Notes under the pieces: model-generated | What the model was told of the DNA's origin: nothing | Databases searched by the model: none | Seen by the model: the letters and a program-made list of their open reading frames with translations, nothing else | Shown: positions 11,819 to 13,076 of the stretch, one piece after another | Position numbering within the stretch: position 1 is the stretch's first letter | How the letters are laid out: the number at the start of each line of letters is the position of its first letter | NCBI GenBank assembly: GCA_016720545.1 | Contig: JADKKK010000003.1 | Coordinates: 409,516-473,515, forward strand | Length of the DNA: 64,000 nt | DNA from: Myxococcales bacterium | GTDB taxonomy: Bacteria > Myxococcota_A > Polyangia > Polyangiales > Polyangiaceae | Direction: 5' to 3' | Position numbers and translations under genes: made by a program

Positions 11819-11837
11819 AGGCGCCGGGAATCCGACC
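11819..11837. repeat. degenerate direct repeat of the ssrA 3' end (AGGCGCCGGGAATC exact 14 nt, then cGACC vs GAACC); candidate attachment-site remnant
   Basis: Matches ssrA positions 12724-12737 exactly and lies ~0.9 kb 3' of the tmRNA gene. Confidence 0.45.
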
Positions 11838-12129
11838 TCCGACCTCACCCGTTCGGCACCGTCCAGTGCCGGATCGGCAGACCGCCAAACGCGTAGAGAG
11901 AGTCGAGCGTGCGTCGTAGTGGCGTGCGTCGATACGTGGCTCGGTGGATCGACCACGCGTGGAAGACGCAAGCGTCGCCAGCCCCCAGGGCGATAGCGGC
12001 GGCAACGTGACGCCGATCGGGAAGCGGGGCGGCAAGTGAACCGCGCGACGTTGCCCCGTACGGGCCTCCGCTGGCGTGCCCCTGGGGTTGGTTGGGCGCC
12101 CGGTCTCCCTCGACGCGTCTCCGGCCGGC

Positions 12130-12420
12130 CTACGCGCGCGGGACCGGAGGCGTCCGGGTGAGATTGACGACGCGCACCACTTCGTCGTCGCCGTCGACCT
12201 GGAACCACGGCCACAGGTTCCGCCCGGGCACGCGCCGCACGAGCGCTTGACCCGTCGGCGGAACGACGGCGATCGCGTCGAGCATGCCCGGGAGCGTGGC
12301 CGCGTCCGAGAGGTGCGCGAGGGTGGCGCCGATGGCCGCGGACTCTGGCGAACCGGACCGGACGCCGCACGGCGTCATTCGCTCCCGGAAGCGAAGCGTC
12401 AGGCGAACGATTCGGGCCAT
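12130..12420 (-). CDS. small hypothetical protein inside the ssrA-flanking islet
   Basis: The 96-aa ORF has a protein-like C-terminus (GMLDAIAVVPPTGQALVRRVPGRNLWPWFQVDGDDEVVRVVNL). It overlaps the next small ORF by ~20 nt. I recognise no family. Confidence 0.3.
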   Translation of the reverse strand: MARIVRLTLRFRERMTPCGVRSGSPESAAIGATLAHLSDAATLPGMLDAIAVVPPTGQALVRRVPGRNLWPWFQVDGDDEVVRVVNLTRTPPVPRA

Positions 12421-12584
12421 TCGCCGGTCTCCGCCCAGCGTCGAAGGTCTTCCGCGGACACGTCGATGCCCGCCGCCTCGACGCCCGCCGCCGCCGTGGT
12501 CGGTGCCGACACTTCGTCTTCGCGGATCTCTTCGGCCGTCTCACGTGAGGCGACGAGCGGCGCGGCTTTGAGGGCGGGACCCAT
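12399..12584 (-). CDS. small hypothetical protein (possible partner of 12130-12420 in a two-gene cassette)
   Basis: MGPALKAAPLVASRETAEEIREDEVS...DVSAEDLRRWAETGEWPESFA. It is short and acidic. The overlap arrangement resembles an antitoxin/toxin-type pair, but this is only a guess. Confidence 0.25.
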   Translation of the reverse strand: MGPALKAAPLVASRETAEEIREDEVSAPTTAAAGVEAAGIDVSAEDLRRWAETGEWPESFA

Positions 12585-12720
12585 ACCGCGAGGCCATGCG
12601 GGCGCCTCCGGCGCGAGGGGCGCCTTCCCGCACCGCTCGCAAGTGCGCGGAACCAGGTCGCAGATTGCCCCGCTTGGCCACCTTCCGGCCCAAGTGGGGC
12701 TCAAGTGCCCGGAATCATTG

Positions 12721-13076
12721 TGGAGGCGCCGGGAATCGAACCCGGGTCCGAAAAATCACGCGCTTGCTGCTTCTACGTGCGTATCTGGTCGTTTAATTTC
12801 ACCCCGGAGCGCGACGGCCAGCAGCCTTTCTCCGAGCCAATTTGCCTGCTTATTTTCGCCGTAGGCCCCGGCAACCCGGGCTTTGGCTAGTCAGATCGAT
12901 GACGCCCTCGCCGAAGCTCTGACGGGCTTCGGGTCGGACGGCTCTACCGTTTTTTAGGCGGCGAGAGCGATTGCGTTGTCGTTCGCAATTAACGTCCCCA
13001 TGAGGATTTACGTGGTTCACGAGACCCACGGCACGCAGCTAGGAAGTCGTCATCTCCGTCGAAACCGATCGCCCCC
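12721..13076 (-). ncRNA. ssrA: tmRNA (transfer-messenger RNA)
   Basis: 5' end GGGGGCGAUCGGUUUCGACGG, with the acceptor 3' strand CGCCUCC, give G3.U70 (alanine identity). The T-arm is GGGUUCGAUUCCCGG. The internal tag ORF is GCG AAC GAC AAC GCA AUC GCU CUC GCC GCC UAA (ANDNAIALAA*). Confidence 0.85.

Follow-up and report, generated by a model that had tools for sequence, protein, structure and literature searches.

A probable remnant of an integrated element, with a toxin-antitoxin-like gene pair, at the tmRNA gene of a Polyangiaceae bacterium

In a 64-kb stretch of DNA from a Myxococcales bacterium of soil/sludge origin (GenBank assembly GCA_016720545.1, contig JADKKK010000003.1, positions 409,516 to 473,515), here called the window, the transfer-messenger RNA (tmRNA) gene ssrA is followed about 0.9 kb downstream by a short, degenerate copy of its own 3' end. 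We consider it probable, at roughly 70%, that the segment between the two (11838-12719) is what remains of an element once inserted at the ssrA core, that the copy at 11819-11837 is its decayed distal attachment (att) site, and that a toxin-antitoxin (TA)-like gene pair, which we call ORF61 and ORF96, was kept as the part most resistant to loss. A decayed att-flanked islet at ssrA had been proposed in the original prediction, which was made from the letters of the window. It is now supported, indirectly, by the improbability of the repeat, by the att core that an element of a sister strain uses, by the polymorphism of the site, and by the occurrence of the same two-gene cassette at tRNA genes.

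A degenerate copy of the ssrA 3' end

ARAGORN called a tmRNA gene with the tag ANDNAIALAA at 12720-13076 on the minus strand, and the Rfam model RF00023 matched 12718-13076 with 165.5 bits over model positions 1 to 374 of 374, indicating a full-length gene. It is the sole tmRNA gene in the window, and its 3' end faces the lower coordinates. An Rfam search of 11000-13200 at a permissive threshold found the tmRNA gene alone. The 14-mer AGGCGCCGGGAATC has exactly two sites in the 64-kb window, one at 11819 and the other at 12724 inside the T-arm/acceptor part of ssrA, both on the same strand; shuffled sequence gave a mean of 0.11 matches with one mismatch tolerated. When 11819-11837 was aligned without gaps to 12724-12742, 17 of the 19 positions were identical, 14 of them forming the exact match. 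The mismatches fall in T-loop positions, and the distal copy ends with ...GGCGCCT, 4 nucleotides (nt) before the end of the gene, where GGCC stands in for CCAC. We estimated chance occurrence with a 20-Mb Markov-1 simulation trained on the dinucleotides of the window: sequence that matches the last 45 nt of ssrA exactly over 14 nt or more should occur 0.0009 times per 2 kb in direct orientation. The tmRNA gene and the repeat of 14 exact nt (19 nt with mismatches) described in the original prediction were both confirmed, and the 14-mer, which could have been scattered over many unrelated positions, occurs in the window only at ssrA and at 11819.

The islet begins at the base directly after ssrA (12717-12719). 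Its content had been described as about 880 bp with two overlapping small open reading frames (ORFs) and no integrase, which agrees with our results except that the start of the upstream ORF is revised to 12584. No integrase was found in 11838-12719, and a homolog of the sister-strain integrase described below was found nowhere in the 64-kb window; the islet is therefore classed as a remnant only. A promoter and terminator scan of 11500-13200 returned nothing informative. The arrangement is not an assembly artifact, because at least six independent contigs from metagenomes or metagenome-assembled genomes (MAGs) reproduce it with 98 to 100% identity, several of them covering ssrA, the cassette, and the repeat together.

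An integrase-bearing island at the same site in a sister strain

The sister strain (GCA_963852875.1) was located by matching the exact protein sequence of the HIT gene, which lies upstream of ssrA; this led to an 814-kb contig. We used blastn to compare the merged contig CAWKVH010000008.1, assembled from two overlapping stretches, with the window. The two match from window position 23691 to 12720 at 99.5% identity, and the match ends at the last base of ssrA. It resumes at 11533-11337 (97%), in the middle of an Imm5-like immunity gene, and then runs from 11118 to 522 at 99.9%. Between ssrA and the Imm5-like gene, the sister strain has an island and two ssrA fragments instead of the islet (Table 1). 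The sister-strain Imm5-like gene is a 142-aa ORF whose 5' end is cut by the ssrA fragments at the equivalent of window position 11533, and window 11119-11336 is replaced by a ClpS/Clp_N-like gene.

An integrase ORF adjoins ssrA in the sister strain, with a PF00589 score of 29.4 bits (cutoff, 27.1) and a match to phrog_1 at an E value of 7.5e-22. This ORF (L001 10903-12419, minus strand) is frameshifted after the HDLRSTGLTW box, which could reflect a real inactivation or a long-read homopolymer error. The C-terminal frame, which holds the region of the catalytic tyrosine (GHAAFTSTEVY), stays open as far as attL and extends beyond it for 75 nt of ssrA in antisense. The element further carries primase/helicase-like genes (phrog_29234, phrog_19930, and phrog_3228), small unknown genes, and a gene for a helix-turn-helix (HTH) protein.

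At the far end of the element lies an exact 24-nt copy of the ssrA end and its flank, reading ATTGTGGAGGCGCCGGGAATCGAA on the plus strand, and 91 nt beyond it a second copy of the ssrA 3' end, exact over 20 nt. Because these far-end copies match ssrA exactly from the T-loop to the end, we take TTCGATTCCCGGCGCCTCCAC as the att core; it spans the T-loop to the ssrA 3' end (12720-12740) plus up to 3 to 4 nt of flank (AAT). The sister-strain element is bounded by perfect repeats of 21 to 24 nt over window 12717-12740, and the degenerate copy in the window falls inside this core. Tyrosine-integrase elements of this Polyangiaceae-like population use the ssrA 3' end as a live integration site.

Both ssrA fragments of the sister strain (merged contig, 12003-12167) precede a near-identical GC-hairpin flank of about 40 nt, forming a 91-nt tandem unit, and this flank is probably the ancestral ssrA terminator. 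The left flanks of the window repeat and of the sister-strain ssrA fragments resemble each other by eye, but local alignment against shuffled sequence was not significant (P = 0.23 for the left flank and 0.93 for the right), and we do not claim orthology of the repeat with these fragments.

Strain variation downstream of ssrA

Two contigs show a further arrangement. L002 tracks the window from 16606 to 12398, at the stop codon of the upstream small ORF, and then diverges into a terminator-like hairpin followed by a convergent type I restriction hsdR gene, whose product is about 80% identical to proteins from many phyla. The independent contig L080, from another sample, has the same break at 12398. 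Both keep ssrA and ORF61 and are without ORF96, and their sequence after the break is 91 to 92% homologous to the sequence that follows a complete cassette in L033, from another Polyangiaceae species. The far end of the island was not reached on contigs of this type, the hsdR gene being widely transferred and the closest contig 3.5 kb. In the window the order is ssrA, ORF61, ORF96, 253 nt, and the degenerate repeat; the L002 and L080 strains look like ssrA and ORF61 with ORF96 deleted, followed by further cargo. The pattern of breaks would be expected if the ancestral island was larger and each strain has since lost other portions of it, and loss of a toxin gene with the antitoxin gene kept fits the expected decay route of a TA pair.

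The original prediction would have been refuted by related genomes with identical content at ssrA and no polymorphism of the repeat. What we found instead is an integrase island of about 13.7 kb in one strain and two contigs that diverge at 12398. The empty-site comparison that it proposed was answered in part: the site is polymorphic among relatives, but no precise empty site was recovered.

A MAG of the sister genus (L078, GCA_016712525.1) keeps the 349-aa gene and the HIT gene and has no tmRNA gene within 10 kb, so that it gives no outgroup view of an empty site. Only this gene pair (L078 8913-10516) is syntenic with the window (14776-13220, 71% nucleotide identity), and both sides differ. 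By this comparison, the junction between the HIT gene and ssrA appears to be a rearrangement breakpoint at greater evolutionary depth too.

A toxin-antitoxin-like cassette in the islet

The module that holds ORF61 and ORF96 is the only part of the window that has a counterpart in L033 (12091-12628, 86% identity), where it stands in a different context; L031 and L032 share window 12622-12201 at 81%. The open frame of ORF61 runs over 12399-12704 on the minus strand. We read its start as the ATG at 12584, giving 61 aa, because other contigs call it so, the TTG extension lacks coding-type GC, and the homologs agree. The overlap between ORF61 and ORF96 is 22 nt long both in the window and in the closest relative, L023; in L034 and L037 it measures 4 nt (GTGA). 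A homologous small ORF precedes the ORF96 homolog in essentially every one of the roughly 45 loci that we collected, comprising the window, 13 loci from a scan of species-representative genomes, and 31 from a metagenome scan. All 13 genome-scan loci are in Myxococcota MAGs.

Homologs of ORF96 are 94 to 97 aa long and 50 to 95% identical, with 31 invariant positions that include VRRV.GRNLW.W. The GC content of ORF96 at the three codon positions is 0.74/0.56/0.88. The ratio of nonsynonymous to synonymous substitution rates (dN/dS) against L033 and L023 is 0.35 to 0.38 for ORF96 and 0.37 to 0.43 for ORF61, as under purifying selection. The C-terminal motif LRRWAETGEWPE of ORF61 is conserved with L023, and distant ORF61 relatives share the motif PHPDD..VR....ERGE.LS.

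An AlphaFold2 model of ORF96, built on an alignment of eight sequences, had a predicted local distance difference test (pLDDT) value of 88 and a predicted template modeling (pTM) score of 0.80, with beta-alpha-alpha-beta4 topology. When Foldseek was run with this model against the Protein Data Bank (PDB), the top 50 matches were all RelE/YoeB/YafQ/ParE/HigB toxins, with probabilities up to 1.00, template modeling (TM) scores of 0.40 to 0.69, and a best E value of 4.5e-3. A profile of the ORF96 family had no match among PDB sequences, and catalytic residues could not be assigned. In ORF61, no recognizable ribbon-helix-helix (RHH), HTH, or Phd DNA-binding domain was found. The search of the small ORFs against TA databases suggested in the original prediction gave no profile match but was positive at the level of fold, with the predicted RelE/ParE fold of ORF96 and the conserved small partner upstream of it. 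Judging from the model, ORF61 and ORF96 appear to form a TA-like module that has been maintained and belongs to the RelE/ParE structural superfamily, and the pair would act as antitoxin and toxin. ORF96 would represent a previously unnamed family with a predicted RelE/ParE fold that current TA and defense profile libraries miss.

The cassette at other tRNA-type genes

At 8 of the 45 loci, the window counted, the cassette has a tRNA-type gene no more than about 500 nt away. Those immediately upstream and co-oriented are the tmRNA gene of the window, tRNA-Val(TAC) in L023, tRNA-Glu in L034, tRNA-Lys in L037, and tRNA-Val(GAC) in L069; those immediately downstream and convergent are tRNA-Arg in L040, tRNA-Met in L041, and tRNA-Pro in L057. 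Assuming about one tRNA gene per 140 kb, such adjacency is expected for about 1% of loci, and the enrichment is marked (P of about 7e-9, binomial test of 8/45 against about 1%).

At two of these loci, direct repeats enclose the cassette and no integrase is present. In L023 the tRNA-Val 3' end and its flank recur as a 28-nt repeat (27/28), with the cassette between two copies that stand 1268 bp apart. In L034 the repeat is about 95 nt long, 73 nt of it exact, and consists of the final 15 nt of tRNA-Glu together with flanking sequence; its copies surround about 640 bp that hold the cassette only. In L041 the stretch from tRNA-Met to a frameshifted cassette contains copies, of 33 nt and 18 nt, of the 3' end of the tRNA gene. 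Direct repeats of tRNA 3' ends were looked for in L037, L040, L057, and L069, and none was found (in L057 and L069, within less than 1 kb downstream of the tRNA gene). L036 and L074 have an integrase 51 to 52% identical to that at ssrA of the sister strain, at 0.7 to 1.1 kb from the cassette. Other cassette neighbors are insertion sequence (IS) transposases, a PIN/HTH pair, a UPF0175 gene, and a WYL regulator. No relative of ORF96 was found in 2.9 million viral contigs. From these sequence contexts, the cassette appears to be a typical cargo of tRNA-targeting integrative elements and often the sole content left between the repeats.

Several loci show further features. The copies of the tRNA-Met 3' end in L041 (33 nt and 18 nt) each begin one of two tandem units of about 88 nt (6288-6450), in which a conserved segment of about 55 nt after each copy resembles a degenerate tRNA variable/T region; the adjoining ORF96 homolog has a 1-nt frameshift. 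In L045 the cassette is split, with the ORF61 homolog at 4087-4272 and an ORF96 remnant at 6001-6114 separated by an opposite-strand gene of 490 aa with a weak match to UPF0236 (transposase-like); the arrangement (4087-6114) looks like an insertion into the cassette. In L033, which is not at a tRNA gene, a 19-nt direct repeat (341-359, GAGAGACGTCGAGGGAGAC; 830-848, GAGACGCGTCGAGGGAGAC; 17/19) flanks the cassette, its left copy standing at the edge of the homology with the window and its score lying above all 100 shuffles. Terminal repeats specific to the cassette, either attC-like or like those of miniature inverted-repeat transposable elements (MITEs), were rejected as a general feature: L033 alone exceeded the shuffles, and 7 of the 8 loci tested did not.

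Origin of the islet

The reading that we favor is integration at ssrA followed by decay. An element would have integrated at ssrA so that the 3' end of the gene was rebuilt from element DNA and the displaced ssrA fragment was left at the far end. Later deletions would have removed the integrase and other cargo, and the distal repeat would have drifted to 17/19 and lost its last 4 nt. The 540-bp two-gene module, in which antitoxin-like ORF61 overlaps toxin-like ORF96, would have survived; a cell losing the pair would be poisoned by the more stable toxin, and the module would resist loss because its absence exposes the cell to that toxin. Since we found no genome or contig in which ssrA is joined directly to 11818, that is, an exact empty site, we infer rather than observe the integration or excision of this 0.88 kb; its entry by site-specific integration and its shrinkage from a larger element are likewise reconstructed from the sequences compared.

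Several observations weigh against this reading. The distal repeat is short, has two mismatches, and is without the terminal CCAC, and comparison of its flanks with those of the sister-strain fragments gave no significant similarity (P = 0.23 and 0.93). The sister strain is arranged differently, with ssrA fragments of its own, a flank that resembles a terminator, and an Imm5-like gene that is truncated. ORF61 of the window, like the L033 copy, has lost the PHPDD...ERGE motif and retains only the C-terminal LRRWAETGEWPE; neither ORF61 nor ORF96 (nor the ORF123 discussed below) has a match in Pfam, NCBIfam, PADLOC, or PHROGs. The GC content is 0.70 to 0.74 within the islet and 0.70 to 0.77 outside, with no atypical composition, which is not disqualifying because atypical GC is not obligatory for transfers within a lineage. 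Finally, most cassette loci are away from tRNA genes, and the 540-bp module moves between contexts (L033 and L031); being mobile as such a module, it could have reached the ssrA flank without ssrA-specific integration.

This last point leads to the main rival explanation, unlikely in our view but worth weighing, in which the short repeat is fortuitous or irrelevant and an independently mobile 540-bp module landed in the permissive intergenic region downstream of ssrA by illegitimate or homology-assisted recombination. The homology with L033, L031, and L032 is indeed limited to 12628-12091/12201, with unrelated flanks there, and the homology block (12628-12091) is narrower than the interval from ssrA to the repeat. 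Adjacent tRNA genes are lacking at most cassette loci, the L033 module is flanked by its own 19-nt repeat (17/19) GAGACG(CG)TCGAGGGAGAC, and the islet itself has no compositional anomaly. The window repeat, moreover, misses the last 4 nt of the gene, and its flanks have no homology to the proven att fragments. Chance, however, would place such a copy at this position and in this orientation only about 0.001 times, and the copy lies within the att core of the sister-strain element. In three other species, unambiguous repeats of a tRNA 3' end surround or adjoin the cassette, which also speaks against a fortuitous repeat, and independent movement of the module is hard to reconcile with the absence of cassette-specific terminal repeats from 7 of the 8 loci tested.

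Instead of a dead remnant, the islet might be a functional integrase-less element mobilized in trans by the integrases of co-resident ssrA or tRNA elements, a concept published for ssrA islands (PMC3146451). Such mobilization would account for the range of tRNA-type genes at which it occurs. The islets at tRNA-Val (L023, 1.27 kb) and tRNA-Glu (L034, about 0.64 kb), which hold the cassette and no integrase, would suit it, as would the tandem att copies in the sister strain, typical of accretion, and the related integrase beside the cassette in L036 and L074. We nevertheless judge it quite improbable for the window, where the distal site is degenerate (17/19, with T-loop mismatches and no CCAC) and an unlikely substrate, and where neither an empty ssrA site nor a circular junction was observed among the contigs compared, no search aimed at excision products having been made. 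The repeats of each islet match its own tRNA gene, so that a different att site would be needed for each target, and no relative turned up among the 2.9 million viral contigs. For the near-perfect islets in L023 and L034, continued mobility is possible on the basis of their repeats.

A functional adjacency, in which a RelE-fold cassette is kept beside ssrA, perhaps cotranscribed, for coordinated control, seems to us very improbable. The predicted RelE/ParE fold of ORF96 is compatible with such a link, as is the position of ORF61, which starts 135 nt past ssrA in the same orientation; no terminator-like site was detected in the intervening stretch. Christensen and Gerdes are said to have reported in 2003 that RelE-type toxins make non-stop ribosome complexes that tmRNA rescues, which would connect the two functions. 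The same cassette is found, however, next to seven kinds of ordinary tRNA gene and in either orientation, and most of its loci have no neighboring RNA gene; sister strains have no cassette at ssrA or lack ORF96 there; and the fold could be RelE-like (RNase) or ParE-like (gyrase poison).

A broader reading is conceivable, although we hold it to be doubtful. ORF61 and ORF96 might define a family of minimal integrase-less "addiction islets" of 0.6 to 1.3 kb, in which a divergent TA module between tRNA-type 3'-end repeats would persist, and perhaps spread, at a range of tRNA and tmRNA genes in Myxococcota, mobilized in trans by P4-like tyrosine integrases and protected from deletion by post-segregational killing. 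If so, the unit itself, and not random decay, would explain why the same content recurs at tmRNA, tRNA-Val, and tRNA-Glu genes.

Surrounding genes and other observations in the window

The features of the ssrA region are collected in Table 1. The Imm5-like gene, just outside the islet and strain-variable, is split by a 4-nt deletion near 11478; in the metagenome contig L031 it is intact (175 aa). The spacer at 11838-12129 has no protein-family or Rfam match. A 123-aa frame across its edge (ORF123, 11664-12035) was rejected as a gene: its GC content at the three codon positions, 0.73/0.68/0.67, shows no coding pattern, and we regard it as spurious.

Farther out, arr, the protease remnant, the YdeI-like gene, and the frameshifted immunity-like gene were all present as first described. 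For the first three of these, interpretation as older layers of the same hotspot found no support. Across window 522-11118 the strains seen agree at 99.9% identity, and neither this block nor the stretch at 9.7 to 11.7 kb contains a further ssrA fragment of at least 11 nt. The strain-variable part extends only from 11119 to ssrA and includes the Imm5-like gene.

Table 1. Features around ssrA in the window
Feature	Position	Strand	Basis or remark
ssrA (tmRNA), intact	12718..13076	-	Rfam RF00023, ARAGORN
att core used in the lineage	12717..12740	-	Exact sister-strain copies, 24 nt + 20 nt
Spacer adjoining ssrA	12629..12716	-	99% common to L002/L080, not to the L033 cassette copy (blastn)
Transferable cassette module	12091..12628	-	blastn of L033 vs window, 86%
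ORF61, small antitoxin-like partner	12399..12584	-	61-aa gene on independent contigs
ORF96, toxin-like, predicted RelE/ParE fold	12130..12420	-	Homologs, AlphaFold2 model, Foldseek
Non-coding spacer, cassette to repeat	11838..12129	.	Only in window-type arrangement
Degenerate copy of ssrA T-arm/acceptor, presumed distal att remnant	11819..11837	-	17/19, 14 exact
Segment replaced in sister strain by ~13.7-13.8-kb island and two ssrA fragments	11534..12719	.	blastn
Imm5-like immunity gene, frameshifted	11189..11667	-	Pfam PF21805 matches split over two frames
OmdA/YdeI	10517-11116	+	
Trypsin-like protease fragment, GDSGGP motif	~10113-10430	+	
arr	9738-10181	-	PF12120, NF033144

Elsewhere in the window, 34099-34228 (minus strand) consists of a tRNA-like 3' half, 5 nt, and a tRNA-like 5' half. 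ARAGORN made no call there, and the region matches the Rfam family YrlA (Y RNA-like, RF02553) with 68.3 bits (gathering score, 69; E = 3e-15). The gene upstream of it, ending near 34412, has a C terminus that is Ro60/Rsr-like by eye only. From its sequence and position this is probably a genuine rsr-yrlA locus, of the kind overlooked when annotation relies on thresholds. The segment 34296-34335 (minus strand), which falls between YrlA and the rsr-like gene, reads GCGCCCGCC-CTAGCAGCTAGCTAGCTAGCTAG-CGGGCGCG, in which a self-complementary (CTAG)n run is enclosed by a GC clamp; such a sequence is unusual for a genome with 72% GC, and it could form a long hairpin or a second Y-RNA-like stem. A dispersed repeat of about 70 nt (86 to 87% identity) occurs at 36594-36662 and 47532-47587, with a further copy at L031 155-224. 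One copy lies about 140 nt upstream of a tRNA-His/Ala/Arg cluster, and the L031 copy lies upstream of the intact Imm5-like gene.

Comparison with known systems

Williams is said to have described ssrA-specific genomic islands and their remnants in 2003 under the title "Traffic at the tmRNA gene." The site studied here resembles such islands in the integration at the 3' part of a single-copy tmRNA gene, in the strain-variable content, in the tandem or nested repeats, and in the existence of members without an integrase. It differs in that the unit in the window is only 0.88 kb long and has no integration module and a degenerate distal repeat. In Dehalococcoides, ssrA islands have a 20-bp repeat and include tandem islands and integrase-less members, and the dsiB integrase frame runs across attL into ssrA (PMC3146451). 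The sister-strain integrase frame crosses attL into ssrA in the same way as dsiB, but it encodes a tyrosine recombinase (PF00589), whereas DsiB is a serine recombinase.

The cassette is similar to type II TA systems such as RelBE, YefM-YoeB, DinJ-YafQ, ParDE, and HigBA in having two small overlapping genes with the short partner first, and the ORF96 model shares the beta-alpha-alpha-beta4 fold of the RelE/ParE toxins, with TM scores of 0.55 to 0.68 to solved toxins. The patchy distribution, the association with mobile elements, and a toxin-deleted variant in the population are further points of likeness. Unlike those systems, the pair has no profile match, and the partner is without a recognizable RHH, HTH, or Phd domain.

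Cis-mobilizable elements (CIMEs), known from the ICESt elements of Streptococcus thermophilus, are att-flanked derivatives of integrative elements that lack the integrase. The islet is CIME-like in being a short segment next to a tRNA-type gene that has attL- and attR-like repeats at its ends and encodes no recombinase, and in coexisting within its population with integrase-bearing elements that use the same site. CIMEs, however, are defined by functional att sites and demonstrated mobilization in trans, whereas the distal site in the window is degenerate and known from sequence alone. The Escherichia coli cryptic prophage CP4-57, which is about 22 kb long, lies at ssrA, carries TA pairs, and still has its integrase. 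Like the islet, it is a decaying element at a tmRNA gene that retains TA modules; unlike it, it measures about 22 kb, keeps the integrase, and has toxins of unrelated families.

Islands at ssrA, tandem ssrA fragments, and integrase-less remnants are thus already well known, and the islet, which illustrates the view that a decaying mobile element loses its addiction modules last, changes no general principle. What the present analysis adds to them is a predicted RelE/ParE-fold family unseen by profile libraries, its enrichment at tRNA and tmRNA 3' flanks in Myxococcota, and the recurrence of cassette-only islets. Traffic at this tmRNA gene is also resolved at the level of a population, that of an uncultured, Polyangiaceae-like wastewater lineage, in which a live-looking element with integrase and primase, an hsdR gene or other sequence, and a TA-like stub occupy the same site in different strains. 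The strong enrichment of the ORF96 family at these flanks is useful for annotating islands in Myxococcota.

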